From Escherichia coli (GTDB lineage: Bacteria > Pseudomonadota > Gammaproteobacteria > Enterobacterales > Enterobacteriaceae): a stretch of DNA of 64,000 bases. The stretch is from assembly GCF_045037415.1 (NCBI RefSeq), contig NZ_CP173438.1. One strand, given 5' to 3'. Both the position numbers and the translations under genes were made by a program. The notes under the pieces are model-generated. The model was not told the DNA's origin. It worked only from the letters and a program-made list of their open reading frames with translations, and ran no database searches. Positions 41,698-56,230 of the stretch are shown piece after piece; the stretch's first letter is position 1, and each line of letters begins with the position of its first letter.

Positions 41698-43197
41698 ATG
41701 CTAAATTTATTTGTTGGCCTTGATATATACACAGGGCTTTTGTTATTACTTGCTCTGGCATTTGTGTTGTTCTACGAAGCAATCAATGGTTTTCATGACA
41801 CGGCGAATGCGGTGGCAACCGTTATTTATACTCGTGCCATGCAACCACAACTTGCTGTGGTGATGGCGGCATTTTTTAATTTTTTTGGCGTGTTATTGGG
41901 CGGACTTAGCGTTGCCTATGCCATTGTCCATATGTTACCAACCGATTTGTTGCTGAATATGGGGTCAACTCACGGCCTGGCGATGGTCTTTTCCATGCTG
42001 CTGGCGGCGATTATCTGGAACCTGGGAACGTGGTTCTTTGGTTTACCGGCCTCCAGTTCGCACACCTTGATTGGTGCGATTATCGGCATCGGTTTAACCA
42101 ACGCGCTGTTAACCGGCTCATCGGTGATGGATGCGTTAAACCTGCGTGAAGTGACCAAAATTTTCTCCTCGCTGATTGTTTCCCCTATCGTCGGCCTGGT
42201 CATTGCGGGTGGTCTGATTTTCCTGCTGCGCCGTTTCTGGAGCGGGACGAAAAAGCGTGACCGTATTCACCGCATTCCGGAAGATCGCAAAAAGAAAAAA
42301 GGCAAACGTAAGCCGCCATTCTGGACGCGTATTGCGCTGATTGTTTCCGCTGCGGGCGTGGCGTTTTCGCACGGCGCTAACGACGGGCAGAAAGGGATCG
42401 GCCTGGTAATGCTGGTACTGGTGGGGATTGCCCCTGCTGGCTTCGTCGTCAATATGAACGCGTCCGGCTATGAAATTACCCGTACCCGCGATGCCGTCAC
42501 CAACTTCGAACACTACCTGCAACAGCATCCTGAACTGCCGCAGAAGTTGATTGCGATGGAACCTCCATTGCCTGCGGCATCGACTGATGGCGCGCAAGTG
42601 ACGGAGTTTCACTGTCATCCGGCAAATACCTTTGATGCGATTGCGCGCGTTAAAACGATGCTGCCAGGCAATATGGAAAGCTACGAGCCGTTAAGCGTGA
42701 GTCAGCGCAGCCAGCTGCGCCGCATTATGCTGTGCATCTCTGATACTTCCGCGAAGCTGGCGAAACTGCCAGGCGTCAGTAAAGAAGACCAGAACCTGCT
42801 GAAAAAACTGCGCAGCGATATGTTAAGCACCATTGAGTACGCACCGGTATGGATCATCATGGCAGTAGCACTGGCGCTCGGCATTGGCACCATGATTGGC
42901 TGGCGTCGTGTAGCGATGACCATCGGTGAGAAGATTGGTAAGCGCGGCATGACGTATGCGCAAGGCATGGCGGCACAAATGACGGCGGCAGTGTCTATCG
43001 GCCTTGCCAGTTATATTGGGATGCCCGTCTCCACAACACACGTACTCTCATCTGCCGTAGCAGGAACGATGGTGGTGGACGGCGGTGGGTTACAGCGTAA
43101 AACGGTAACCAGCATCCTGATGGCGTGGGTGTTTACTTTACCGGCGGCGATTTTTCTTTCTGGTGGGTTGTACTGGATAGCATTGCAGTTGATTTAA
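41698..43197 (+). CDS. pitB: Low-affinity inorganic phosphate transporter (PiT family)
   Basis: 499-aa [44 protein letters not shown]... with the PiT GANDGQK signature. Confidence 0.95.
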
Positions 43198-43245
43198 CCT
43201 TCCTGAAAATGCCCGGTCCTGGCGATCGGGCATTTCCATTTTTGA

Positions 43246-43938
43246 CTAGTGATAACCACGCGCGGTCATAAAATCCGTAATCGCTTTTTCTGCATCAATC
43301 AGCACCTTTTCCAGTGGCTGATTAGCATCGATATCAACCAGTTGTGCACCGCCAAAGGTTAACTGTGGCGTTATGGCAATCTTCCTCGCCAGCGATTCCC
43401 GTTTATGGTCGGGTTTACGCGCGCAGGCAACTTCAAGGTCAACATTGAGTTTGATGACCAGATCAGGTTTATGGCTCGCCATCCAGTGAAACGCTTTACG
43501 TTCCTGGCTTGCCAGCCATGAGACAAAACGACCACCTTCAATGTTAGGTGGGAACACTGTACCATCGTAAGCGCCAGGAATTTGGTCCTGAGGATAACGG
43601 TCGGTTAGAACAATTAACCCGCGACGACGACAGGCAAGCATATGACGAAAGCGCAGTAAGCGACGGGCGACAAACGCTGTAATTACCAGCGCCGGAACTG
43701 GTCCTGGCAATTTTTTTGCTGTTTTCACCTGATTTCGTTCAATTGTTTTATGTAAGGATTTTCCCATCAACGGTAATTTTGTCACTGAACGACCGACATT
43801 TCCGGCCTGTTTTCCTAAATGAACTCTTTCGGCAGCACCATATTTTTCGACAACGGTAATGAGATGTTCACACACCGTTGACTTGCCTGAACCATCGCTA
43901 CCAATAACGGCAATTAATGGAGGTGTTATTGACTGCAT
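43246..43938 (-). CDS. yghT: P-loop nucleotide/nucleoside-kinase-like protein YghT
   Basis: 230-aa ORF with Walker [10 protein letters not shown], a TDRYPQ motif and a lid-like ARKPDH block; paralogous to the two following genes. Confidence 0.85.
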
Positions 43939-44111
43939 GAATATATCCTTTAATTTAAATATCCATTAAAAATATTTATTTGGTTAATATGTTTTTATGA
44001 AAGCGTAATTCAGGTCAATGTCACAATTAACCATTGTCACAATAAGGTTGAACGGATATTCTGAGCACGGACCACGTAATATTCAATACATTATTTGCTG
44101 CCGGGTTTTTC

Positions 44112-44825
44112 GTGAATCAACGTAATATGTCAATAATTAATTCCACGCCAGTGCGTGTTATTGCCATTGTAGGATGTGATGGTTCAGGTAAATCGACCCT
44201 CACGGCAAGCCTGGTAAATGAACTGGCAGCAACAATGCCAACAGAACACATTTATCTCGGGCAATCGTCCGGGCGAATTGGCGAATGGATTTCACAGCTC
44301 CCTGTTATTGGCGCACCTTTTGGGCGTTATCTGCGAAGTAAAGCGGCACATGTGCACGAAAAGCCCTCCACACCGCCTGGCAATATGACTGCGCTGGTTA
44401 TCTATCTGCTTTCCTGCTGGCGGGCGTATAAGTTTCGCAAAATGTTGTGTAAAAGCCAGCAAGGCTATCTGCTCATCACCGACCGCTACCCGCAGGTTGA
44501 AGTGCCGGGTTTTCGCTTTGATGGCCCGCAATTGGCAAAAACCACGGGCGGTAACGGTTGGATAAAAATGTTAAGGCAGCGCGAGCTGAAGCTGTACCAA
44601 TGGATGGCATCTTATTTGCCCGTATTGTTGATTCGTCTTGGCATTGATGAACAAACCGCGTTTGCGCGTAAACCTGACCACCAACTGGCGGCGTTACAGG
44701 AAAAAATCGCCGTTACGCCGCAACTGACATTTAATGGCGCCAGGATCCTTGAACTGGATGGTCGGCAACCAGCCGATGAAATTCTGCAAGCGTCACTACG
44801 CGCAATTCAAGCTGCGCTTTCCTGA
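44112..44825 (+). CDS. yghS: P-loop kinase-like protein YghS
   Basis: 237-aa ORF starting at GTG (44112); Walker A GCDGSGKST, TDRYPQ, ARKPDH. Confidence 0.85.
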   Translation: MNQRNMSIINSTPVRVIAIVGCDGSGKSTLTASLVNELAATMPTEHIYLGQSSGRIGEWISQLPVIGAPFGRYLRSKAAHVHEKPSTPPGNMTALVIYLLSCWRAYKFRKMLCKSQQGYLLITDRYPQVEVPGFRFDGPQLAKTTGGNGWIKMLRQRELKLYQWMASYLPVLLIRLGIDEQTAFARKPDHQLAALQEKIAVTPQLTFNGARILELDGRQPADEILQASLRAIQAALS

Positions 44826-44856
44826 TCACCAAAATGGATAGGGGATGATTTAACGA

Positions 44857-45630
44857 ATGGACGCACTACAAACACAAACTGTTAATAGTACAACCGCGCC
44901 GCAGCCCAACTACATTCCGGGGCTGATTGCGGTGGTCGGGTGTGATGGCACCGGTAAATCCACACTGACCACCGACCTCGTGAAATCGCTGCAACAACAC
45001 TGGCAAACCGAGCGGCGCTATCTGGGGCTGCTCTCGGGCGAAGACGGCGACAAAATCAAACGATTGCCGTTGGTTGGCGTCTGGCTCGAAAGGCGACTGG
45101 CGGCCAAATCATCGAAAACCCAAAGCATGAAAACCCAAAGCATGAAAACCAAATCTCCAGCGCTATGGGCGGCGGTGATTATGTACTGCTTCTCGCTGCG
45201 AAGAATGGCGAATCTACGCAAGGTTCAGCGACTGGCGCAAAGTGGCGTTCTGGTGGTCAGCGATCGCTTCCCGCAGGCTGAAATTTCGGGCTTTTATTAT
45301 GACGGACCGGGGATCGGCGTCGAACGTGCGACCGGGAAAATCAGCATGTTTCTGGCGCAGCGCGAACGGCGTTTATACCAAAAAATGGCGCAATACCGTC
45401 CTGAATTAATCATTCGTTTGGGGATTGATATTGATACTGCCATCTCCCGCAAGCCTGACCATGACTATGCCGAGCTGCAGGACAAAATCGGCGTCATGTC
45501 GACGATTGGCTATAACGGCACAAAAATTCTTGAGATTGATTCCAGAGCGCCCTACAGCGAAGTGCTGGAACAGGCACAGAAGGCGGTTTCTCTGGTTGCC
45601 ATCGTTTCTGACCGCCGAAGTTTAACTTAA
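44857..45630 (+). CDS. yghR: P-loop kinase-like protein YghR (carries an internal 5-aa tandem repeat)
   Basis: 257-aa ORF MDALQTQTVNSTTAPQPNYIPGLIAVVGCDGTGKST...; SDRFPQ and SRKPDH motifs. Confidence 0.85.
   Translation: MDALQTQTVNSTTAPQPNYIPGLIAVVGCDGTGKSTLTTDLVKSLQQHWQTERRYLGLLSGEDGDKIKRLPLVGVWLERRLAAKSSKTQSMKTQSMKTKSPALWAAVIMYCFSLRRMANLRKVQRLAQSGVLVVSDRFPQAEISGFYYDGPGIGVERATGKISMFLAQRERRLYQKMAQYRPELIIRLGIDIDTAISRKPDHDYAELQDKIGVMSTIGYNGTKILEIDSRAPYSEVLEQAQKAVSLVAIVSDRRSLT
45115..45150 (+). repeat. In-frame 15-bp tandem duplication inside yghR
   Basis: AAAACCCAAAGCATG occurs twice in tandem, followed by a partial third copy (AAAACC), encoding ...KTQSMKTQSMKTKS... Confidence 0.9.
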
Positions 45631-45675
45631 GGCTGGCGGGATACTTTTTACTATCAACGATAAGGTCAGGCTGAA

Positions 45676-47025
45676 TTGGCGGGTTTTAACATCAAACATT
45701 GGTTTGCAGATGGCGCGTTTCGCACCATTATTCGCAATAGCGCCTGGTTAGGCTCCAGTAATGTCGTGAGCGCTTTACTGGGTCTGTTGGCGCTCTCGTG
45801 TGCCGGTAAAGGGATGACGCCCGCCATGTTTGGCGTACTGGTGATTGTACAATCGTACGCCAAGTCGATCAGCGATTTTATTAAGTTTCAGATATGGCAG
45901 CTGGTGGTTCAGTACGGAACACCAGCATTAACCAACAATAATCCGCAGCAATTCCGCAATGTCGTCTCATTTTCCTTCTCGCTGGATATCGTCAGCGGCG
46001 CGGTGGCGATTGTCGGCGGCATTGCCTTACTCCCTTTTCTTTCCCATTCATTAGGTCTGGATGACCAAAGCTTTTGGCTGGCAGCGCTGTATTGCACGCT
46101 CATTCCTTCAATGGCTTCCTCCACGCCGACCGGCATTCTGCGTGCGGTAGATCGCTTCGATCTAATTGCTGTACAGCAAGCGACGAAACCTTTTCTGCGC
46201 GCAGCGGGGAGCGTCGTAGCCTGGTATTTTGACTTTGGTTTTGCGGGTTTTGTTATTGCCTGGTACGTGTCGAATCTGGTTGGCGGCACCATGTACTGGT
46301 GGTTTGCCGCGCGCGAATTACGCCGCAGAAATATCCATAACGCCTTCAAATTGAATCTGTTTGAGTCTGCCCGACACATTAAAGGCGCGTGGAGTTTTGT
46401 CTGGTCAACCAACATTGCCCACTCCATCTGGTCGGCGCGTAACTCGTGCAGCACAGTGCTGGTGGGGATCGTGTTAGGACCCGCTGCCGCCGGGTTATTT
46501 AAAATCGCCATGACATTCTTCGACGCCGCCGGAACGCCAGCGGGTTTACTGGGCAAAAGTTTTTACCCAGAGGTGATGCGTTTAGATCCGCGCACCACCA
46601 GACCGTGGTTGTTAGGCGTGAAGTCAGGTTTACTGGCGGGCGGAATTGGTATTCTGGTGGCGCTCGCGGTGTTGATCGTCGGCAAGCCGCTTATTTCGCT
46701 GGTGTTTGGCGTTAAGTATCTCGAAGCGTATGACCTGATTCAGGTGATGCTGGGCGCAATTGTGATTTCGATGCTGGGCTTCCCACAGGAGTCATTGCTA
46801 TTGATGGCGGGAAAACAGCGCGCTTTTCTCGTGGCGCAAACCATCGCCTCAATCGGCTACATCGTATTGCTGTTCATGTTCTGTCATCTGTTTGGCGTGC
46901 TGGGAGCAGCGTTTGCTTATTTCGGTGGGCAATGTCTGGATGTGGTGCTCTCGTTAATTCCGACCTTAAAGGCATTTTTTCAGCGCCATTCCTTGCTTTA
47001 TAACGCAGCCGGAGAGAAATCCTGA
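45676..47025 (+). CDS. yghQ: MOP-superfamily (Wzx-like) polytopic membrane protein YghQ; start uncertain
   Basis: 449-aa track ORF beginning at TTG 45676 with AAGG 9 nt upstream; highly hydrophobic multi-TM protein. Stop overlaps the start of the next gene (TGATG). Confidence 0.75.
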   Translation: MAGFNIKHWFADGAFRTIIRNSAWLGSSNVVSALLGLLALSCAGKGMTPAMFGVLVIVQSYAKSISDFIKFQIWQLVVQYGTPALTNNNPQQFRNVVSFSFSLDIVSGAVAIVGGIALLPFLSHSLGLDDQSFWLAALYCTLIPSMASSTPTGILRAVDRFDLIAVQQATKPFLRAAGSVVAWYFDFGFAGFVIAWYVSNLVGGTMYWWFAARELRRRNIHNAFKLNLFESARHIKGAWSFVWSTNIAHSIWSARNSCSTVLVGIVLGPAAAGLFKIAMTFFDAAGTPAGLLGKSFYPEVMRLDPRTTRPWLLGVKSGLLAGGIGILVALAVLIVGKPLISLVFGVKYLEAYDLIQVMLGAIVISMLGFPQESLLLMAGKQRAFLVAQTIASIGYIVLLFMFCHLFGVLGAAFAYFGGQCLDVVLSLIPTLKAFFQRHSLLYNAAGEKS

Positions 47026-47849
47026 TGATGAGAAAATATTTCCCGCTTGAGGCGAGCGAGCGTTTATTTGTTGCAGTTGAAGAAGATGATGTCGTTGATG
47101 CACAGGTCAGTTTGCCGCCGACTATCGCACTAAGTTGTACCACCGAAATCATCCATGATAATTACGCGTTATGCCTGCAATTCTGGCTCAATGGCGTCAA
47201 TCGCCAGGAGTTACTGCGTTTAATATGCAAACAGGCCAAAGGCGATGAGCTGACTGCTGATGAGCGCAAACAATTTAAATACATGCGAGCGCGCTACAAG
47301 CACCTGCGTTTTGCGCAACGGCTGTATTTAAAGAAGCATCAGGCCGGATTTTTATTCGGCAAAACGACCGTTTTTTTGGGGCGTTTTCAGGACGGTTTTC
47401 GTAACGGTAAGAAAAATATTGTGTCGTATTACGGCAACTTGTTACGGGTTTATTTAAGCTCTCCGGTCTGGTCGTTGGTGAACTATTCATTACGCCATAG
47501 CCAGTTAGAAAGCGTAAGCGGTTTTATTGCCTATCGGCAAAAGCAAATGCATACCCTGAAAGAGATAATTGCCAAACCGCGACTCACCGGCAGGGAATTT
47601 CATGATGTGCGAAAAATCATCAGCCAGCAGGTTTCTTATTACGACACCTTAAGATCGCTTGATCCTGAAAATAAAGAGGCGTTACAGATTTCCCGCTTCC
47701 TCGCCGCCATTAATGGCCTGATGGGGGATAAACACGACGACATGGTGGCGGATGATATGGAAAACCGCCAGTCGTATGATGCACCGGTGGCGCTGGATAG
47801 CGATATTCGCCAGCGCTTAGAGCTGCTGATTTCGCGTTTTCCGCTATAA
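47025..47849 (+). CDS. Hypothetical soluble protein, no recognisable family
   Basis: 274-aa ORF MMRKYFPLEASERLFVAVEEDD...; coding assignment rests on length, coupling to yghQ (1-nt overlap) and operon context. Confidence 0.6.
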   Translation: MMRKYFPLEASERLFVAVEEDDVVDAQVSLPPTIALSCTTEIIHDNYALCLQFWLNGVNRQELLRLICKQAKGDELTADERKQFKYMRARYKHLRFAQRLYLKKHQAGFLFGKTTVFLGRFQDGFRNGKKNIVSYYGNLLRVYLSSPVWSLVNYSLRHSQLESVSGFIAYRQKQMHTLKEIIAKPRLTGREFHDVRKIISQQVSYYDTLRSLDPENKEALQISRFLAAINGLMGDKHDDMVADDMENRQSYDAPVALDSDIRQRLELLISRFPL

Positions 47850-47857
47850 CCGGAGCA

Positions 47858-48421
47858 ATGATGTCATCTCGTTTGATTATTGCGCTGATTATCATGCTCT
47901 TAGCCCAGGGTGTGCAGGCACACAATTTTGTCACTGGCAAAACGGTTACCCCCGTTTATATCCAGGAAGGCGGCGAGCTGCTTCTGAATAGCGACGACGA
48001 AATTCACTACCAAAAGTGGAACAGCACACAGCTGGCGGGAAAAGTCCGCATTATCCAGTATATCGCCGGGCGTAAGTCGGCGAAGAAAAAGAACTCACTG
48101 TTAATTAAAGCGGTTGAAGCGGCAAACTTTCCGCAGGATCGTTTTCAGCCCACCACCATTGTGAACACCGATGATGCCATCTTTGGTACTGGCTATTTTG
48201 TCGTTGGCAAAATCGAAAAAAATAAACGCCGCTATCCGTGGGCGCAATTCGTTATTGACGGCAATGGACTGGGACGCGTTGCCTGGCGGTTGCCGGAGCA
48301 GAGTTCAACCATTCTGGTGCTGAATAAAGACGGGCAAATTCAGTGGGCAAAGGACGGCAGCCTGACGCCGGAAGAGGTAGATCATGTCATTGCGCTGGCG
48401 CAGAAACTGATCAATGAATAA
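47858..48421 (+). CDS. YtfJ-family periplasmic protein
   Basis: 187-aa ORF with signal peptide MMSSRLIIALIIMLLAQGVQA and GGAG Shine-Dalgarno; body resembles my recollection of YtfJ (QKWNS..LAGKVR..QYIAGR, TTIVNTDDAI, LNKDG..QWAKDG.LTPEEV). Confidence 0.65.
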   Translation: MMSSRLIIALIIMLLAQGVQAHNFVTGKTVTPVYIQEGGELLLNSDDEIHYQKWNSTQLAGKVRIIQYIAGRKSAKKKNSLLIKAVEAANFPQDRFQPTTIVNTDDAIFGTGYFVVGKIEKNKRRYPWAQFVIDGNGLGRVAWRLPEQSSTILVLNKDGQIQWAKDGSLTPEEVDHVIALAQKLINE

Positions 48422-48451
48422 AAAATTCAAAGGATTGAGGGTGTTAGTGAG

Positions 48452-49522
48452 ATGAAGCTGGTTGAACACTACATCATGCGTGGTACGCGCCGTCTGGTGC
48501 TGATTATCGTCGGTTTTCTGATCTTTATTTTCGCCAGCTACTCCGCACAGCGTTATCTGACCGAAGCGGCAAATGGGACCTTAGCTCTTGATGTTGTGCT
48601 GGATATCGTTTTCTACAAAGTGCTGATTGCACTGGAGATGTTGTTACCTGTTGGTCTGTATGTGTCAGTTGGCGTGACGCTAGGGCAGATGTATACCGAC
48701 TCGGAAATTACCGCTATCTCTGCGGCGGGGGGCAATCCGGGACGCTTGTACAAAGCCGTTCTTTATCTGGCGATACCGCTAAGTATTTTTGTCACCCTTC
48801 TGTCGATGTATGGTCGGCCGTGGGCTTATGCGCAGATTTATCAACTGGAGCAACAGTCGCAGTCGGAGCTGGATGTTCGCCAGTTGCGGGCAAAGAAATT
48901 TAACACTAACGATAACGGACGAATGATCCTTTCGCAGACGGTTGATCAGGATAATAATCGCCTGACTGACGCGCTGATTTATACTTCTACTGCCAATCGA
49001 ACCCGCATTTTCCGCGCCCGTTCGGTTGATGTGGTTGACCCATCACCTGAGAAACCGACCGTTATGTTGCATAACGGGACCGCCTATCTTCTCGATCATC
49101 AGGGGCGTGACGACAACGAACAGATCTACCGTAATCTGCAATTACATCTGAATCCGCTGGATCAAAGCCCTAACGTCAAACGCAAAGCAAAATCGGTCAC
49201 GGAGCTGGCGCGCTCAGCCTTTCCTGCCGATCATGCCGAACTGCAATGGCGACAAAGCCGTGGCCTGACAGCATTGTTGATGGCGCTGCTGGCCATTTCA
49301 TTAAGTCGGGTAAAACCGCGGCAAGGGCGATTTTCAACGTTATTGCCACTGACATTGCTGTTTGTTGCCATTTTTTATGGCGGCGACGTCTGCCGTACGC
49401 TGGTGGCTAACGGTGCGATTCCCCTCATTCCTGGTTTGTGGTTAGTACCCGGACTCATGCTAATGGGCCTGCTGATGCTGGTCGCACGCGACTTCTCTTT
49501 GCTGCAGAAATTTTCCCGATGA
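48452..49522 (+). CDS. LptF/LptG-family (YjgP/YjgQ) permease paralog
   Basis: 356-aa ORF: three N-terminal TM segments, a central soluble domain and C-terminal TM segments, the architecture of LPS-export permeases. Confidence 0.75.
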   Translation: MKLVEHYIMRGTRRLVLIIVGFLIFIFASYSAQRYLTEAANGTLALDVVLDIVFYKVLIALEMLLPVGLYVSVGVTLGQMYTDSEITAISAAGGNPGRLYKAVLYLAIPLSIFVTLLSMYGRPWAYAQIYQLEQQSQSELDVRQLRAKKFNTNDNGRMILSQTVDQDNNRLTDALIYTSTANRTRIFRARSVDVVDPSPEKPTVMLHNGTAYLLDHQGRDDNEQIYRNLQLHLNPLDQSPNVKRKAKSVTELARSAFPADHAELQWRQSRGLTALLMALLAISLSRVKPRQGRFSTLLPLTLLFVAIFYGGDVCRTLVANGAIPLIPGLWLVPGLMLMGLLMLVARDFSLLQKFSR

Positions 49523-50598
49523 ATGTTTTCAGTCGCTATTTAATCCGTCATCTCTTTCTCGGTTTTGCCGCCGCCGCAGGGCTATTGCTGCCGCTTTTTA
49601 CCACCTTCAACCTGATTAACGAACTGGATGATGTCAGCCCGGGCGGTTATCGCTGGACTCAGGCGGTGCTGGTGGTGCTGATGACCTTACCGCGTACACT
49701 GGTCGAACTTTCGCCGTTTATCGCATTATTGGGAGGGATTGTTGGCCTGGGGCAGTTATCGAAAAACAGTGAGCTTACCGCCATTCGCAGCACTGGGTTT
49801 TCTATCTTCCGTATTGCACTGGTGGCGCTGGTTGCCGGGATATTGTGGACTGTTTCGTTAGGCGCGATAGATGAGTGGGTGGCGTCGCCATTGCAGCAAC
49901 AGGCGCTGCAAATCAAATCGACTGCCACCGCGTTGGGGGAGGACGATGACATTACCGGCAATATGCTTTGGGCCAGGCGCGGTAATGAATTTGTGACGGT
50001 GAAATCGCTGAACGAGCAGGGCCAGCCTGTGGGCGTGGAGATATTTCATTATCGCGACGATCTCTCGCTCGAATCCTACATTTTTGCACGCAGTGCCTCC
50101 ATTGAAGACGACAAAACGTGGATCCTGCATGGTGTGAATCATAAAAAATGGTTGAATGGCAAAGAAACGCTGGAAACATCAGATAATCTTGCCTGGCAAT
50201 CGGCCTTCACCAGTATGGATCTTGAAGAGTTATCGATGCCGGGGAATACTTTTTCTGTCCGTCAGCTTAATCATTACATCCATTATTTGCAGGAAACCGG
50301 ACAACCCAGCAGCGAATACCGCCTTGCACTGTGGGAAAAACTGGGGCAACCGATCCTGACCCTGGCGATGATTTTGCTGGCTGTGCCGTTCACCTTTAGC
50401 GCCCCGCGCTCGCCAGGGATGGGTAGCCGTCTCGCTGTAGGCGTCATCGTTGGCTTACTCACCTGGATCAGCTATCAAATCATGGTCAATCTGGGATTGT
50501 TATTTGCGTTGAGCGCACCTGTTACCGCGCTCGGTTTACCGGTAGCGTTTGTGTTGGTGGCGTTGAGCCTGGTGTATTGGTATGACAGACAACATTAA
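49519..50598 (+). CDS. LptF/LptG-family (YjgP/YjgQ) permease paralog, LptG-like
   Basis: Track ORF 49438..50598; preferred start ATG at 49519 (MNVFSRYLIRHLFLGFAAAAGLLLPLFTTFNLINELDDV...) overlapping the upstream stop (ATGA). The N-terminus and LSKNSELTAIRSTGFS block parallel E. coli LptG. Confidence 0.78.
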   Translation: MNVFSRYLIRHLFLGFAAAAGLLLPLFTTFNLINELDDVSPGGYRWTQAVLVVLMTLPRTLVELSPFIALLGGIVGLGQLSKNSELTAIRSTGFSIFRIALVALVAGILWTVSLGAIDEWVASPLQQQALQIKSTATALGEDDDITGNMLWARRGNEFVTVKSLNEQGQPVGVEIFHYRDDLSLESYIFARSASIEDDKTWILHGVNHKKWLNGKETLETSDNLAWQSAFTSMDLEELSMPGNTFSVRQLNHYIHYLQETGQPSSEYRLALWEKLGQPILTLAMILLAVPFTFSAPRSPGMGSRLAVGVIVGLLTWISYQIMVNLGLLFALSAPVTALGLPVAFVLVALSLVYWYDRQH

Positions 50599-50632
50599 AC
50601 CCGCCGTGGCGCAACACCACAGCGGGCTCACA
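50599..50632. terminator. Stem-loop between the convergent LptG-like gene and the AOS-like gene
   Basis: CCCGCCGTGG-CGCAACA-CCACAGCGGG, imperfect 10-bp inverted repeat filling the 34-bp gap between two convergent stop codons. Confidence 0.45.
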
Positions 50633-51805
50633 TTACTGCTTCAGAGTAGCAAATGCCTGAATGATGGCATCGATTTGCTCACGACTGTGGGCAGCGTTTA
50701 CGCTACAGCGCAGCAGAGTGATGCCTGCAGGCGCGGCAGGTGGCAGGATAAGATTCACATAAACGCCCAGCGAAATAAGCTCGCGCCAGATGCGTAAACC
50801 TTCCTCTTTCGAACCGATTATTACTGGCACTACCGGGCTAATATGTGAACTTAACTCATAACCCAGTTTTTGCAGACCGTCATACAGATGGTTGGCGTTA
50901 TCCATCAGTTTTTGCCGCAGCTCTGGTTGTGTGGCAATGGTTCTTAACGACGAGCGCACGGTCGCAATGCAGGACGGAGAAGGAGAGGCGGTAAAAATAT
51001 ACGGGCGGCTGCCGTAGCGCAGCACTTCCATCGCTTCCGAACCGACAGCAAAACCGCCAATCGAGGCCAGACTTTTACTGAAAGTACCAACGATAATATC
51101 CACATCATCTTCAACGCCAACGGCTTCAGCCAGTCCGCGCCCCGTTGCGCCTAACACGCCAAACGAATGCGCTTCATCGACAATCAAATAACCACCGAGA
51201 CGACGTTTGATATCAACAATTTCCGCTAACGGCGCAACGTCACCGAGCATGCTGTAGATGCCCTCAACGATGATAATCGCCTCTTTCGCCCGTTCACCGA
51301 GGCGAACCATGCGCCGTTCCAGATCTTTAGCATCGTTATGGCGGAAACGAATAATTTCTGCGCCACCGAGAGAACAGGCGTCATAAATACTGGCGTGGCT
51401 GTCGGCATCCAGTAACACCACGGCGTTATGGTCGGCAAGTGCGCTGATGACGCCTAAATTAGCGGTATAACCGGTTGAAAAAACGATAGCGGTAGGGCGA
51501 TTGAAAAACTCGGCAATCTCTTTCTCTAACGCCAGGTGCGGCGCATAACTGCCGTTTGCCATACGAGAACCGGTGGTGCCGGTGCCTTGGGCCGCTAACG
51601 CTGCCTGACCTTCGGCGATGGCATCATGATTAAAGGTTAAACCGAGATAATTATTGGTCCCGGCCAGAATCACTTTTTTATTGCCGATCCGACCTTCGGT
51701 GGCGGAATACACTTCATCAATACAGGTGCCAAACGGTGTTAACCCGTTGTCACTAAATTGCAGTCGCTCGCCAGCAAGGCGCGCATATTTATCGTATAGC
51801 CCCAT
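50633..51805 (-). CDS. PLP-dependent alpha-oxoamine synthase (serine palmitoyltransferase / BioF / Kbl family)
   Basis: 390-aa ORF with VDEAHSFG and the PLP-lysine block GTFSKS; start ATG overlaps the ACP stop (TAATG). Confidence 0.85.
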   Translation of the reverse strand: MGLYDKYARLAGERLQFSDNGLTPFGTCIDEVYSATEGRIGNKKVILAGTNNYLGLTFNHDAIAEGQAALAAQGTGTTGSRMANGSYAPHLALEKEIAEFFNRPTAIVFSTGYTANLGVISALADHNAVVLLDADSHASIYDACSLGGAEIIRFRHNDAKDLERRMVRLGERAKEAIIIVEGIYSMLGDVAPLAEIVDIKRRLGGYLIVDEAHSFGVLGATGRGLAEAVGVEDDVDIIVGTFSKSLASIGGFAVGSEAMEVLRYGSRPYIFTASPSPSCIATVRSSLRTIATQPELRQKLMDNANHLYDGLQKLGYELSSHISPVVPVIIGSKEEGLRIWRELISLGVYVNLILPPAAPAGITLLRCSVNAAHSREQIDAIIQAFATLKQ

Positions 51806-52053
51806 TATTTATTCTCCAGCCATGGAAGTAGAGTTTCCATTAATTGCGCAGGGGTTTTGACATCCAGCAGAATATTAATAGGAATGGAAATATCGAATCT
51901 GTCTTCCAGCATCATTAAGAGATCCATCACTTTGATCGACTCCAGGCCAAGATCGTTGACGAGATCGCTGTCGGGCTTAATTTCCACACCGTTTTCGACC
52001 AAATCCTGTAAACAGGAAAGGATGTAATCCATTACTATTTCACGATTTACCAT
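51805..52053 (-). CDS. Acyl carrier protein
   Basis: 82-aa acidic protein with a phosphopantetheine-attachment-like DLGLESI motif. Confidence 0.75.
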   Translation of the reverse strand: MVNREIVMDYILSCLQDLVENGVEIKPDSDLVNDLGLESIKVMDLLMMLEDRFDISIPINILLDVKTPAQLMETLLPWLENK

Positions 52054-52084
52054 AGAAACGTTAACACACCTTTAAACAAGACAA

Positions 52085-52999
52085 TCAAAATAGCCCGTTG
52101 CGTAATGCGTGTTCCAGGCTAATCCCGGGAAACCAATTAATATCTTCAGAAATACGGTTATTACTTGCCGACCAGTCGGCATGGGTTAATTCACGGATTT
52201 TCGAACGAGTCAGCATCGGTTCTTTACCCGCCAGACGGCTCAACGCGGTACTGATATCCGCAAGGCAGGTGAGTAGCGGCAGAGGAATACCGACCATCCG
52301 CACGGAACCACAGCGGACATCGGCAACAAGCTGTTGGACACGTTGCCAGTCATAGCCTCCGGCGACGCCATCGCATAATTCATAGGTTTGCGTCTGTACA
52401 GTTTCGGCGCTTAACCACTGACCCACTGCTTGCGCAAAATCGGTGACGTGCAGGAAAGAGAGCTGTGTCTCTGGCGTGCCAAGTCGTGGCAGCAGACCGC
52501 GCAGCATCCAGTCAAACAGCGGTTTTAACTCTTTATCGCCGGGACCATACACGGCTGTCGGGCGAAAAACGCCCAACGTAATTGCGTCAGCCATTGCAGT
52601 CAGCTGTTGTTCGGCGACGTGTTTGGAATTTGCGTACCAGGAGAGTTCGGGATGGCGCGCCGCCAGCGAAGAGATAAACAGAAATCGTTGGCAAAAGCCG
52701 CTCTCTTTTGCCGCTTGCATCAGGCGCAGGCTGCCGTCAACGTTGCAGCGGGTAAAAATCTCTTCTTTGTGCCCGCGCACTTGCCCGGCGCAATGGACCA
52801 CCGCGCTGGCTCCGGTAACCAGTTCGCTAAGCGAATGTGTATCTTCCAGCGAACCGCGCACCCAAGTGAGATTATCATTGACGTGAGCGCGGGCAGTACG
52901 CGTCAATGCGCGAACGTGAAAGCCGCGGGCGAGCAGGTTATCAATAATATATTTACCGATAAACCCGGTAGCGCCCGTCACCGCGACAGTTTGATTCAT
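52085..52999 (-). CDS. NAD(P)-dependent epimerase/dehydratase-family (extended SDR) reductase
   Basis: 304-aa ORF with Rossmann VTGATGFIG and catalytic YxxxK (YANSK); start ATG overlaps the upstream stop (ATGA). Confidence 0.82.
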   Translation of the reverse strand: MNQTVAVTGATGFIGKYIIDNLLARGFHVRALTRTARAHVNDNLTWVRGSLEDTHSLSELVTGASAVVHCAGQVRGHKEEIFTRCNVDGSLRLMQAAKESGFCQRFLFISSLAARHPELSWYANSKHVAEQQLTAMADAITLGVFRPTAVYGPGDKELKPLFDWMLRGLLPRLGTPETQLSFLHVTDFAQAVGQWLSAETVQTQTYELCDGVAGGYDWQRVQQLVADVRCGSVRMVGIPLPLLTCLADISTALSRLAGKEPMLTRSKIRELTHADWSASNNRISEDINWFPGISLEHALRNGLF

Positions 53000-54744
53000 G
53001 CCAGGGACTCCTGCACATGAAGACTGGCAGCATAAGCCTTCTGATAACGTTTTTTCGCTTCCGCACGGGCAGGCTTGCCGGAGGATGTTCGGGGAATACT
53101 GTGGGGCGGCAACAGATCGATATCCGCGGTAACGCCAAATTCGCTTTGGATCCGTGCTGCCAGCGCGTGGATAAGCTGCCCGCGACGTTCTTCATCGCTG
53201 ATCCGACACTGGATCTGCAAAATGATTTTTTCCTGGGCGGTAACAAAAGCAATCGCATCGCCAGAATGAATTTCCGGTTCCTGTTCCGCAATATATTCAA
53301 TATCCTGCGGCCAGATATTACGGCCACGAATAATAATCAGATCTTTAATGCGTCCGGTGACATACAGATAACCGTCCAGCAGATAACCGAGGTCGCCGGT
53401 GTCTAACCAGCCCGTCGCGGCAATCTCGTCTTGTGAAATCTGGTCGCCAAAGTAACCGCTCATCAGGCTAGGGCCGGAGATGCAAATATGGCCTACCACA
53501 CGTTCCGCGACAGGTATACCTGCTTCATTGCGGATTTCAATGCCATGTTCCGGCAACGCTTTACCGCAGTTGACGAAAGTCGATACGGCGCGTGTTTCAG
53601 CACCCGGCGCGACGGCTTTACCCTGGTATTCGAGGATGTCGCGATCCACTTCGTTAACCACAACCCCGGAAGCTTCATCAGAGAAGCTGACAGCCAGCGC
53701 ATTTTCTGCCAGTCCGTAGCACGGCATGAAAGTTTTATCGTCAAAGTTGACCTGACGGAAACATTCAGCGAATTGATGGAGTTGTTCTGCGGAGATGGGT
53801 TCTGCACCAATACCAGCGACGCGCCAGCAGGAAAGATCCAGTTCAGCGAGATCTTTTTCATTCACGCGGCGCTGGCACAATTCATAGCCAAACGGCGGCG
53901 CAACGGAAACGGTGCCGCGATTTTTACTGATCAATTTAAGCCATTGCAGAGGACGCATGGCAAAATCCTGAGTGCGCAAATAATCTACTGAAAGCTGCGT
54001 GGCGACGGGGGTCAGGAGAAAGCCGACCAGTCCCATATCATGGTAGAAAGGCAGCCAGGAGACGCAGCGGTCGCCAGGGCGTAATTTAATCCCATCGTGG
54101 CTTATAGCACGTAGATTAGCCATCACTTCGCGGTGAGTAATGATAACGCCACGGGGAAAACGGGTGCTGCCGGAGGTGTACTGGAGGTAGGCGATATCGT
54201 TTGGAACTGGACGTTGAAGCGCAACATCGGCTTCCGGTAATGCCTTAAACCAGGCGTGGCTTAAAACATGTAATTCGGGATTGTTATGCGTCGCGGCATT
54301 GACCAGTGGCAACCACTCATCACCAGTGATAATGGCTGCGGGCTGGCAACTTGCCAGTAACCCCTGCAGTTTGGCGCTCCAGGAATCCCGCTGACCGACG
54401 CCCATTGGAATCGCCAACGGGACGGCGACTAAGCCGGCATACTGGCAGGCAAAAAAAGCCTCTACAAACCCGCTACTCGTTTCGGCAATCAGTGCCACGC
54501 GATCGCCTTTTTTCAGGTTCAGCGATAACAACCGCTTCGCACCAGCTTCGGCACGCGCTTTTAACGTCTGATATTCCAGTTGATCTTCAAGTTGGCAACG
54601 TCTGTCATAAAAATTCATTCCAGCGCTACTCAGAGCGGCATAGTCCAAAGCATCAACCAGCGTTGGAAAATCGGCATAGCGCATAGGTAGGGAATGCGTA
54701 AAGATTTTATTAGACATATACACCACGAAAAAATTGGATATCAA
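52996..54744 (-). CDS. Fatty acyl-AMP ligase / acyl-ACP synthetase (AMP-dependent synthetase family); start uncertain
   Basis: Track ORF starts at TTG 54744; an in-frame ATG at 54717 (MSNKIF...) is the alternative. AMP-binding core YTSGSTRFPRGV and a C-terminal ...SGKPAR... block. Confidence 0.82.
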   Translation of the reverse strand: MISNFFVVYMSNKIFTHSLPMRYADFPTLVDALDYAALSSAGMNFYDRRCQLEDQLEYQTLKARAEAGAKRLLSLNLKKGDRVALIAETSSGFVEAFFACQYAGLVAVPLAIPMGVGQRDSWSAKLQGLLASCQPAAIITGDEWLPLVNAATHNNPELHVLSHAWFKALPEADVALQRPVPNDIAYLQYTSGSTRFPRGVIITHREVMANLRAISHDGIKLRPGDRCVSWLPFYHDMGLVGFLLTPVATQLSVDYLRTQDFAMRPLQWLKLISKNRGTVSVAPPFGYELCQRRVNEKDLAELDLSCWRVAGIGAEPISAEQLHQFAECFRQVNFDDKTFMPCYGLAENALAVSFSDEASGVVVNEVDRDILEYQGKAVAPGAETRAVSTFVNCGKALPEHGIEIRNEAGIPVAERVVGHICISGPSLMSGYFGDQISQDEIAATGWLDTGDLGYLLDGYLYVTGRIKDLIIIRGRNIWPQDIEYIAEQEPEIHSGDAIAFVTAQEKIILQIQCRISDEERRGQLIHALAARIQSEFGVTADIDLLPPHSIPRTSSGKPARAEAKKRYQKAYAASLHVQESLA

Positions 54745-55087
54745 AAATAAAATGACAATAATGCGGTGGATTATATAGGCATAAAAGATAAATGAGATAG
54801 TATTTTCATCGGTGCGATATTGAACATTGATTTAAATAATAGGTTTTGTTTTGTTGTTTTTATTGTGAATGATATTTGATTTATGAATGTATTAAGAATG
54901 AACCTTGTCTGACCGCATTAAATCGCTAAAAGGCATTGTGGCGCTTCTTCGTTGGCTGTGATCTTATCGTAATCATTAATAAATAATATTTATTCTTATT
55001 TTGTATTCATGGTGTTGATTATTAAGATGCCGTTCGTTGCTGTTGCAACCTGTTTTTCATCGTTAATTATTTGTTATCCACAGAGAT
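54745..55087. promoter_or_regulatory. AT-rich divergent intergenic region between the lipid-synthesis operon and yghO
   Basis: ~340 bp of visibly AT-rich sequence with A/T tracts (e.g. TTTTGTTTTGTTGTTTTTATTGTGAATGATATTTGATTTATGAATG) between two divergent starts. Confidence 0.4.
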
Positions 55088-56230
55088 ATGGAATGCGATC
55101 TGCTGATGATTAAAATTGAAAAAGTAATTAATAAAAATGACCTTAAGGCATTTATCGCTTTTCCGTCATCACTTTATCCCGACGATCCAAACTGGATACC
55201 CCCTTTATTCATTGAACGCAACGAGCATTTGTCTGCGAAAAATCCGGGGACGGACCATATCATCTGGCAGGCGTGGGTGGCAAAAAAAGCGGGGCAGATA
55301 GTTGGGCGTATTACCGCGCAAATAGATACCTTGCACCGCGAGCGTTACGGCAAAGATACCGGTCATTTCGGCATGATTGACGCCATTGATGATCCGCAGG
55401 TTTTTGCCGCGTTGTTTGGCGCAGCGGAAGCGTGGTTGAAGTCACAAGGTGCAAGTAAGATCAGCGGTCCTTTCAGCCTGAATATCAATCAGGAAAGCGG
55501 ATTACTGATTGAAGGTTTCGATACACCACCCTGTGCGATGATGCCGCACGGTAAACCGTGGTATGCCGCGCATATTGAACAATTGGGTTATCACAAAGGC
55601 ATTGATTTACTGGCGTGGTGGATGCAGCGAACCGATCTCACTTTCTCTCCGGCGCTAAAAAAACTGATGGATCAGGTGCGTAAGAAGGTGACCATTCGCT
55701 GCATCAATCGCCAGCGGTTTGCCGAAGAGATGCAGATCCTGCGTGAGATTTTCAATTCTGGCTGGCAGCACAACTGGGGATTTGTGCCGTTTACCGAACA
55801 TGAATTCGCGACCATGGGCGACCAACTTAAATATCTGGTGCCGGACGATATGATCTACATCGCTGAGATTGATTCTGCACCCTGCGCGTTTATTGTCGGC
55901 TTGCCAAACATCAACGAGGCGATTGCCGATCTGAACGGATCGCTCTTTCCCTTCGGCTGGGCAAAATTGCTGTGGCGTTTAAAAGTCAGCGGTGTGCGAA
56001 CTGCGCGAGTACCGCTGATGGGCGTGCGGGACGAGTATCAGTTCAGCCGCATCGGCCCGGTGATTGCGTTGTTATTGATTGAAGCCTTACGCGATCCGTT
56101 TGCCCGCCGGAAGATCGATGCGCTGGAGATGTCATGGATCCTCGAAACCAATACAGGCATGAATAACATGCTGGAACGCATTGGGGCGGAGCCGTACAAG
56201 CGTTACCGATTGTATGAAAAGCAGATTTGA
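55088..56230 (+). CDS. yghO: GNAT-like acyltransferase-family protein YghO, apparently intact
   Basis: 380-aa continuous ORF MECDLLMIKIEKVINKNDLKAF... (alternative start ATG at 55106). I recall K-12 yghO being annotated as a pseudogene. Confidence 0.7.
   Translation: MECDLLMIKIEKVINKNDLKAFIAFPSSLYPDDPNWIPPLFIERNEHLSAKNPGTDHIIWQAWVAKKAGQIVGRITAQIDTLHRERYGKDTGHFGMIDAIDDPQVFAALFGAAEAWLKSQGASKISGPFSLNINQESGLLIEGFDTPPCAMMPHGKPWYAAHIEQLGYHKGIDLLAWWMQRTDLTFSPALKKLMDQVRKKVTIRCINRQRFAEEMQILREIFNSGWQHNWGFVPFTEHEFATMGDQLKYLVPDDMIYIAEIDSAPCAFIVGLPNINEAIADLNGSLFPFGWAKLLWRLKVSGVRTARVPLMGVRDEYQFSRIGPVIALLLIEALRDPFARRKIDALEMSWILETNTGMNNMLERIGAEPYKRYRLYEKQI

Follow-up and report, generated by a model that had tools for sequence, protein, structure and literature searches.

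What do the products of yghT, yghS and yghR do for Escherichia coli? The three genes have long stood among the function-unknown genes of the best-studied bacterium, and they lie next to one another in the window analysed here, a 64,000-nucleotide stretch of E. coli DNA (contig NZ_CP173438.1). RefSeq names their products dTMP (thymidylate) kinase, a label given on thin evidence, or nucleoside/nucleotide kinase family protein; the K-12 record reads 'putative ATP-binding protein'. We propose that YghT, YghS and YghR phosphorylate the head group of a ceramide or oxo-ceramide, that a CHAD-like protein of 274 amino acids (aa) binds the phosphate-rich product or its donor and that the flippase YghQ, together with the permeases LptF2 and LptG2, exports the resulting anionic sphingolipid, a reading whose chances of being right or wrong we judge to be even. 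It builds on the fold, the intact catalytic motifs, the deep orthology and the conserved linkage of the three kinases, which are established here.

The initial annotation had described YghT, YghS and YghR as paralogous kinase-like proteins, and BLASTP bears this out, with 37% identity between YghT and YghS (E 2e-53), 43% between YghR and YghS (E 6e-60) and 33% between YghR and YghT (E 6e-46). The three motifs on which that description rested are present in every one of them: the Walker A sequence GxDGxGKST (as GSDGSGKST, GCDGSGKST and GCDGTGKST), the (T/S)DR(Y/F)PQ motif (TDRYPQ twice and SDRFPQ) and the lid-like block (A/S)RKPDH (ARKPDH twice and SRKPDH). As had been suggested from its appearance, the DRY motif aligns in a profile alignment with that of thymidylate kinase, and so does the lid. 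A profile of 58 family sequences finds thymidylate kinases in the Protein Data Bank (PDB) at E 2e-10, in an alignment that takes in the P-loop, the lid and the helix preceding the DRY motif, and the AlphaFold model of YghS (pLDDT, the model's local confidence score, 88.6; predicted template-modelling score 0.85) has the thymidylate-kinase fold.

The fold, the acidic third position of the P-loop, the DR(Y/F) motif and the basic lid that YghRST share with thymidylate kinase (PF02223, TIGR00041), together with the RefSeq names, would suit additional kinases for dTMP or other nucleoside monophosphates. However, the three proteins score only 25.9, 25.1 and 31.2 bits against the NCBIfam dTMP kinase model TIGR00041, about a third of its curated cut-off of 83.25, and Pfam offers for YghS a match to Thymidylate_kin (PF02223) at E 0.025, confined to residues 21-63 around the P-loop; nothing in Pfam is significant. 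Profile searches, which the initial annotation had proposed as a check, thus yield no clear assignment to a nucleotide family: YghRST are members of the thymidylate-kinase superfamily but, by the family threshold, not dTMP kinases, and the RefSeq name over-reaches. Residues about 45-90, which lie between the P-loop helix and the DRY motif and form the acceptor side in thymidylate kinase, have been replaced, and the T, S and R groups each conserve a segment of their own there. The essential tmk of E. coli lies at another place in the genome. A variant in which the kinases supply a soluble head-group precursor can point to the Caulobacter pathway, which requires soluble activated precursors such as cytidine diphosphate (CDP)-glycerate, but no transferase that would join such a precursor to ceramide is encoded in the E. 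coli locus. We consider nucleotide or other small-molecule kinases very unlikely, and the genomic context described below bears on them further.

Nor are the proteins ABC (ATP-binding cassette) ATPases, as had already been noted. LSGGQ, LSGG and SGGQ are absent from all three, their matches to ABC proteins in Pfam and NCBIfam are limited to the P-loop and the fold is that of a kinase with a lid; we reject an ABC identity on the absence of the signature motif. The P-loop, the position beside transporters and the lack of a separate LptB copy in the sphingolipid locus could still be taken to mean that YghRST drive or gate the flippase or LptF2G2 as ATPases or regulators, or else that they form a set of phage-defence nucleoside triphosphatases. 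Against such non-kinase roles stand the lid and the DRx motif, and MOP-type flippases are not ATP-driven. The Caulobacter LptF2/G2 proteins use the housekeeping LptB (bioRxiv 10.64898/2026.04.12.717747). Matches to phage-defence systems in PADLOC remain at the level of the P-loop (E at least 1.6e-4), for which reason that part of the idea was rejected, and as a whole a non-kinase function appears extremely improbable.

The three paralogues are old. We compared 79 loci around YghT orthologues, one genome per species and chosen, non-randomly, as the best-scoring YghT relatives, by tblastn and all-against-all clustering of open reading frames (ORFs). The most widespread of the three genes is yghT, with orthologues in all 79 loci (50-95% identity), and, group by group, the T, S and R orthologues share 50-75% identity with the E. 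coli protein concerned, as against 33-43% between the paralogues. Separate T, S and R orthologues occur in Enterobacterales, Xanthomonadales, Betaproteobacteria and other lineages. The three genes had been called tandem, which holds for yghS and yghR and is slightly inexact for the set because yghT is transcribed divergently from them; this divergent layout is kept in Enterobacterales, Dyella, Rhodanobacter, Luteibacter, Methylotenera, Rhodocyclaceae, gammaproteobacterial metagenome-assembled genomes (MAGs) and a Myxococcales MAG. Orthology and layout across these lineages indicate that the triplication is ancient and that all three copies have been maintained. Walker A, the DRx arginine, a YDG motif and RKPDH are each kept at 90% or more in every group, and intact active sites combined with group-specific acceptor segments argue for three active enzymes that differ in substrate or step.

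Some records in these comparisons carry unexpected taxon labels. The loci labelled 'Martelella alba' (L029, an alphaproteobacterial label) and 'Pseudomonas sp.' MAG (L025), and proteins labelled Klebsiella pneumoniae or Acinetobacter (P0005, P0030), have enteric-type sequences, 67-97% identical to those of E. coli, which suggests mislabelled or contaminated records, or recent transfer.

The genomic neighbourhood points to membrane lipid. An orthologue of spt, the gene for the first enzyme of sphingolipid synthesis, lies within 10 kb of the yghT orthologue in 50 of the 79 loci, many of the remainder being short contigs. Of the 43 full-length loci with the complete kinase triad, 36 have it; for a random position in a genome of 4-5 Mb the chance of lying within 10 kb is about 0.4%. 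At least five gene orders preserve the linkage, which takes in acpR, cerR and aasR as well. Clustering of the ORFs found no nucleotide-metabolism gene as a shared neighbour in any of the 79 loci, a further point against nucleotide kinases. The initial annotation had asked whether the kinases belong with the lipid locus or with nucleotide metabolism, and the strong co-occurrence across genera answers for the former.

The most constant companion of the kinases is, however, not spt but the 274-aa gene, found in 58 of the 79 loci. The MOP flippase gene yghQ accompanies the kinases in 47 loci, and LptF2/LptG2 in 38-39. Further companions appear outside the enterics: two families of PAP2 phosphatases flanking the kinases (20 and 14 loci; Pfam PAP2, E 9e-15), an OlsC/LpxO-like acyl hydroxylase (15 loci) and, in nine non-enteric loci, a membrane methyltransferase whose gene ends 24-27 bp before the yghT orthologue. 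The latter is related to LmtA, the lipid A 1-phosphate O-methyltransferase, at E 1e-31, although its 110 bits fall short of the family cut-off of 325 and the LpxE-like match is weak. Five loci of the Halioglobus type contain an LptA-like gene beside LptF/G-like genes and the kinase triad; according to a 2026 preprint, no LptA duplicate had been found in sphingolipid loci. The arrangement resembles in its logic that of lipid A, where a cytoplasmic P-loop kinase (LpxK) phosphorylates an outer-membrane lipid and a periplasmic PAP2 phosphatase (LpxE/LpxF) or a membrane methyltransferase (LmtA) edits it. Taken with a flippase-fused relative and possible fusions of kinase paralogues described below, the flippase, the Lpt-like permeases, the PAP2 phosphatases, the methyltransferase and the acyl hydroxylase suggest that the kinase reaction takes place on a membrane lipid whose phosphate may later be edited.

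The 274-aa partner is not mentioned in the initial annotation. Its alignment contains two repeated blocks with invariant basic and histidine residues, RARYKHLRFA ... LGxxQDAFRN and EFHDVRKIIS ... INGLMGxxHDEMV, and its all-helical model (pLDDT 95.5) folds into a pair of four-helix bundles bearing conserved basic patches. CHAD domains, modules that bind polyphosphate specifically, are likewise built of two four-helix bundles (bioRxiv 10.1101/567040), and we call the partner CHAD-like on this account, with moderate confidence; it probably binds phosphate-rich anions. The likeness is one of fold. The protein has no match in Pfam, the CHAD family included, no sequence match in the PDB and no hhalign match to the CHAD-containing E. 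coli protein YgiF, so that CHAD membership at the sequence level was rejected. The CHAD structures considered were 6qv5, 3e0s and 6rn5 (Pfam PF05235); in a Foldseek comparison of the model with the PDB, which gave nothing significant, 6qv5 had the best template-modelling score (0.45, E 0.31).

Thymidylate-kinase paralogues beside a CHAD-like protein are also the basis of the principal competing explanation, in which the kinases form a PPK3-like hetero-oligomer that makes or uses polyphosphate, the partner binds the polymer and the connection with lipid is indirect, through the supply of phosphate or energy or of a donor for lipid phosphorylation. In Sulfolobus two co-operonic thymidylate-kinase paralogues, cPPK3 (Saci_2019) and rPPK3 (Saci_2020), form a heteromeric PPK3 with a CHAD protein (Saci_2021) in the operon, and bacterial members have been predicted from 'several dTMPK paralogues plus CHAD' (PMC12995831). 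At yghRST three superfamily members are adjacent, there are possible fusions of kinase paralogues, the specific binding of polyphosphate by CHAD domains would fit, and pitB or pstB lies nearby in some enterics (PstB in five of the 79 loci, about 6-7 kb away). Yet there are three paralogues here against two in Sulfolobus, and all three keep the catalytic DRx arginine that the regulatory PPK3 subunit lacks (PMC12995831), which leaves no obvious dead regulatory subunit. The family profile reaches 2plr at E 1.8e-4 through the P-loop only and so prefers the canonical thymidylate kinases, and the partner resembles CHAD at the fold level only. PPX, SixA, NUDIX and PstSC are missing among the gene clusters common to at least five of the 79 loci, the companions being instead the flippase, the Lpt-like permeases, PAP2 phosphatases and the sphingolipid synthesis genes. 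E. coli, moreover, already has PPK1 and PPX. On balance we regard a polyphosphate enzyme as rather unlikely.

A head-group role gains from what the rest of the locus does. Five ceramide genes are known in E. coli, of which spt, acpR and aasR have been characterized biochemically and yghO and the reductase gene assigned by orthology, the former as an 'aca ... yghO ECD_02850' needed for dihydroceramide synthesis (PMC9386255). In Caulobacter crescentus the anionic head group is made by the ceramide kinase CpgB (CCNA_01218), a member of the diacylglycerol (DAG)-kinase/LCB5 family with a GGDG motif (PMC10331486), together with CDP-alcohol-type and nucleotidyltransferase enzymes. Between pitB and glcC, NCBIfam, RefSeq annotation and a YegS probe revealed no gene of the DAG-kinase, CDP-alcohol transferase or nucleotidyltransferase type, the Cpg proteins themselves not having been used as queries. 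With roles assigned to the other genes of the locus, yghT, yghS, yghR and the CHAD-like gene are left as head-group candidates. In the proposed pathway YghRST would take the place of CpgB, as soluble, ATP-dependent kinases of the cytoplasm whose genes belong to the sphingolipid locus and which initiate an anionic head group; since these P-loop kinases have no homology to CpgB, any shared function would be convergent. Identity as CpgB homologues was rejected, CpgB belonging to the DAG-kinase/LCB5 family and YghS having the thymidylate-kinase fold. Across the 79 loci the E. coli YegS probe, a weak proxy for CpgB, picked up nothing beyond the genuine yegS on a single Serratia contig and a weak match (26% identity over 121 aa, E 0.004). 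The latter, L025:6392-7453, lies between lptG2 and yghS and is possibly a CpgB-like kinase that coexists with the triad.

The head-group proposal can be set out as follows, the lipid substrate, the number and order of the phosphorylations and the role of the CHAD-like protein being what we infer. Spt, AcpR, AasR and YghO, with CerR, would make ceramide or oxo-ceramide at the inner leaflet. YghT, YghS and YghR, anciently diverged and non-redundant cytoplasmic phosphotransferases recruited from nucleotide chemistry into a lipid pathway, would then phosphorylate it with ATP at different positions; alternatively they might act in sequence, perhaps within a hetero-complex, each taking one step on the way from a hydroxyl through a phosphate to a di- or triphosphate. 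The CHAD-like protein would hold the head group or a donor, either of them rich in phosphate, YghQ would flip the anionic lipid and LptF2/LptG2 would pass it on to the outer membrane. LptF2/G2 homologues have been implicated in sphingolipid export in Caulobacter, where a flippase is also predicted (bioRxiv 10.64898/2026.04.12.717747). In the non-enteric relatives PAP2 phosphatases and the LmtA-like methyltransferase may trim the phosphate or add a methyl group to it, as is the case with lipid A. In three proteins (P0121, P0122 and P0124) one chain combines an S-like with an R-like domain, or a T-like domain with another kinase domain, which may hint at a physical complex of the kinases; these are metagenome gene calls that could be frameshift artefacts. 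An unlikely, more far-reaching form of the proposal is that the three kinases build an oligo- or polyphosphate chain on (oxo)ceramide, stepwise or as a PPK3-like hetero-complex, that the CHAD-like protein holds this chain, that the Wzx-type protein flips the lipid and that LptF2G2 exports it, giving most E. coli, though not K-12, and many other Proteobacteria a hitherto unseen outer-membrane sphingolipid with a phosphate chain. A hybrid in which polyphosphate serves as the phosphoryl donor for the lipid is also conceivable.

Several observations weigh against a role in sphingolipid synthesis. The first comes from K-12, in which an insertion sequence, IS5 (IS5LO), joins yghQ at codon 355 to a truncated yghO (window 46741-55300 against K-12 locus L002:147-2409). 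The IS5-bounded deletion, running from yghQ codon 356 into yghO, has removed the CHAD-like gene, the ytfJ paralogue, lptF2, lptG2, spt, acpR, cerR and aasR, and K-12 retains yghRST all the same. About three quarters of complete E. coli genomes have the sphingolipid synthesis and export locus intact, and at least 600 (about 630) more genomes carry yghRST than carry the spt block, so the kinases are not immediately lost when the lipid is. The Caulobacter CerR reductase is periplasmic (PMC11087976), and with such a reductase a cytoplasmic kinase would need to act on oxidised ceramide or on lipid flipped back. The kinases occur without spt within 10 kb in the Halioglobus-type loci, those with the LptA-like gene included, and in loci with only a yghT-like gene. 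In Novosphingobium resinovorum the module sits away from spt, as a compact kinase-kinase-yghQ-CHAD-like operon on the 1.76-Mb replicon pSA1 (L090:12242-15828; yghQ 51% and the 274-aa homologue 40% identical); Novosphingobium is a sphingolipid-producing genus. Finally, the searched literature contains no biochemical or lipidomic data on yghRST or on the E. coli sphingolipid head group; for yghR, yghS and yghT it offers only knockout lists without phenotype and a binding site for FlhDC in the K-12 yghT-yghS spacer, reported from genomic systematic evolution of ligands by exponential enrichment (PMC9962212).

The flanks of the Novosphingobium operon hold iron-uptake genes and, on the opposite strand, a PmrB/QseC-like sensor kinase, in a part of the plasmid for which the plasmid table has no annotation.

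A last difficulty lies in the wider family, and it bears on another alternative, that the kinases act on a different lipid-linked substrate, an undecaprenyl-phosphate-linked glycan or donor or else lipid A/lipopolysaccharide, which the MOP flippase exports, with the sphingolipid genes as neighbours because the outer membrane is the destination of both products. The usual cargo of MOP flippases is undecaprenyl-diphosphate-linked. An exhaustive profile search of 1.84 billion representative sequences returned 2194 relatives at E 1e-3 or below. Many are about 500 aa long and have, ahead of the kinase domain, an N-terminal domain of some 250 aa with a weak match to NTP_transf_5. Distant relatives sit in Wzx/Wzy/GT4 polysaccharide loci, usually with a second paralogous kinase, and two carry an additional fusion partner, a Wzx flippase in one case and a GT4 glycosyltransferase in the other; the superfamily is therefore not specific to sphingolipids, and the Wzx fusion places that kinase at the membrane. 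Loci with only a yghT-like gene hold GT4 proteins, a NodU-like carbamoyltransferase and PAP2 phosphatases, and the Halioglobus-type loci combine LptF/G/A-like genes, a weakly LpxE-like PAP2 gene and an LmtA-like gene with no spt in range. But the E. coli-type locus has neither a glycosyltransferase nor a sugar-nucleotide gene, the link with spt survives several rearrangements, and the polysaccharide-type relatives stand apart as a subfamily whose partner is NTP_transf_5-like and not CHAD-like. We considered and rejected the idea that this NTP_transf_5-like domain and the 274-aa protein are the same (BLASTP E 1.4, hhalign probability 0.5%); the domain is another partner, with 49% identity to an ORF that stands by itself in a polysaccharide locus. 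We hold another lipid-linked substrate to be quite unlikely, and the phosphorylation of (oxo)ceramide remains the reading we prefer.

The locus itself belongs to the E. coli chromosome, positions 43000-46000 of the window being 100% identical to several complete E. coli genomes. Its order is gss, pitB and yghT, followed by a plus-strand run of yghS, yghR, yghQ, the 274-aa gene, a ytfJ paralogue and the lptF- and lptG-like genes, with intergenic gaps of -4 to 45 bp; a convergent minus-strand block (spt, the acyl carrier protein, the NAD-dependent reductase and the fatty acyl-AMP ligase) follows, and then yghO and glcC. The neighbours that the initial annotation had pointed to are thus present: the flippase gene comes directly after yghR, and the spt block and yghO lie 5-10 kb downstream of the kinases. 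All ORFs from pitB to glcC are accounted for by the ORF list and the annotation. The features are collected in the table.

Features of the yghT-yghO locus in the window, with LptA-like and LmtA-like genes of other loci (entries with an L number).
Feature	Position	Strand	Assignment	Basis or remarks
yghT	43246-43938	-	230 aa; P-loop kinase, thymidylate-kinase fold, paralogue group T	ORF, K-12 gene name, motifs
yghT-yghS spacer	43939-44111		Very AT-rich, divergent; presumably promoters for both directions	
yghS	44112-44825	+	237 aa; P-loop kinase, thymidylate-kinase fold, paralogue group S	
yghR	44857-45630	+	257 aa; P-loop kinase, thymidylate-kinase fold, group R	ORF, motifs, orthologue group
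yghQ	45676-47025	+	MOP/Wzx-type flippase, full length (449 aa)	NCBIfam MOP flippase match
Unannotated 274-aa gene	47025-47849	+	All-alpha, CHAD-like; probable binder of phosphate-rich anions	
ytfJ paralogue	47858-48421	+	YtfJ-family periplasmic protein, paralogue inside the locus	TIGR01626, 216 bits; 38 loci, all enteric-type
lptF2	48452-49522	+	LptF-like permease; candidate sphingolipid transporter subunit	Annotation; 38 loci
lptG2	49519-50598	+	LptG-like permease	Annotation; 39 loci
spt	50633-51805	-	Serine palmitoyltransferase, first sphingolipid step	Annotation; E. coli enzyme characterized (PMC9386255)
acpR	51805-52053	-	Specialised acyl carrier protein	Annotation; PMC9386255
cerR/epi	52085-52999	-	NAD-dependent (epimerase/)reductase, ceramide pathway	Annotation; 48 loci; PMC9386255
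aasR	52996-54684	-	Specialised acyl-ACP (acyl carrier protein) synthetase	Annotation; PMC9386255
yghO	55088-56230	+	N-acyltransferase, candidate bacterial ceramide synthase	Annotation; PMC9386255
LptA-like genes	L048:6152-6766, L051:9905-10441, L070:5493-6029, L073:7628-8158, L074:5386-6006			
LmtA-like genes	L055:9111-9977, L070:9093-9977, L074:9234-9977, L062:9234-9974, and five others			

The spacer between yghT and yghS contains one plus-strand sigma-70-like match (44034-44062), which does not exceed the chance expectation from shuffled sequence. Within yghR, positions 45112-45141 hold the 15-bp unit AAAACCCAAAGCATG twice, where K-12 has it once; this tandem duplication repeats KTQSM in a poorly conserved loop and accounts for a YghR of 257 aa here against 252 aa in K-12. 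Several otherwise identical E. coli genomes have the yghT-yghR stretch broken by IS1 or by the IS5-like ISKpn26, which makes the stretch a recurrent target of insertion. An ORF of about 119 aa, conserved but without an NCBIfam match, comes after yghO in 17 loci of Serratia, Pantoea, Rosenbergiella and other enterics, for example L057:7639-7998 and L039:7629-7988; the E. coli arrangement lacks it.

The yghRST genes and the E. coli sphingolipid core locus were already known. What is new, as far as the searched literature shows, is the conserved head-group module of yghRST, the CHAD-like gene and yghQ; the E. coli head group and the enzymes that make it are undescribed there, and this analysis names four candidate genes for it, the three kinases and the CHAD-like gene, in a module conserved across several proteobacterial classes. 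In kind this would be a set of thymidylate-kinase-superfamily proteins exapted to a non-nucleotide acceptor, as in PPK3, an interpretation that we find as easy to doubt as to accept. If it is correct, the superfamily would have given rise to a further exaptation alongside PPK3, and YghRST would represent a second, unrelated class of bacterial ceramide kinase. Were the head group to prove an oligophosphate, the kinases would be a convergent second kind of ceramide kinase and their product the first lipid-anchored oligophosphate. For E. coli the proposal would mean a new anionic lipid in the outer membrane, one with a bearing on polymyxin binding and on the stability of the envelope, roles that have been shown for the phosphosphingolipids of Caulobacter.

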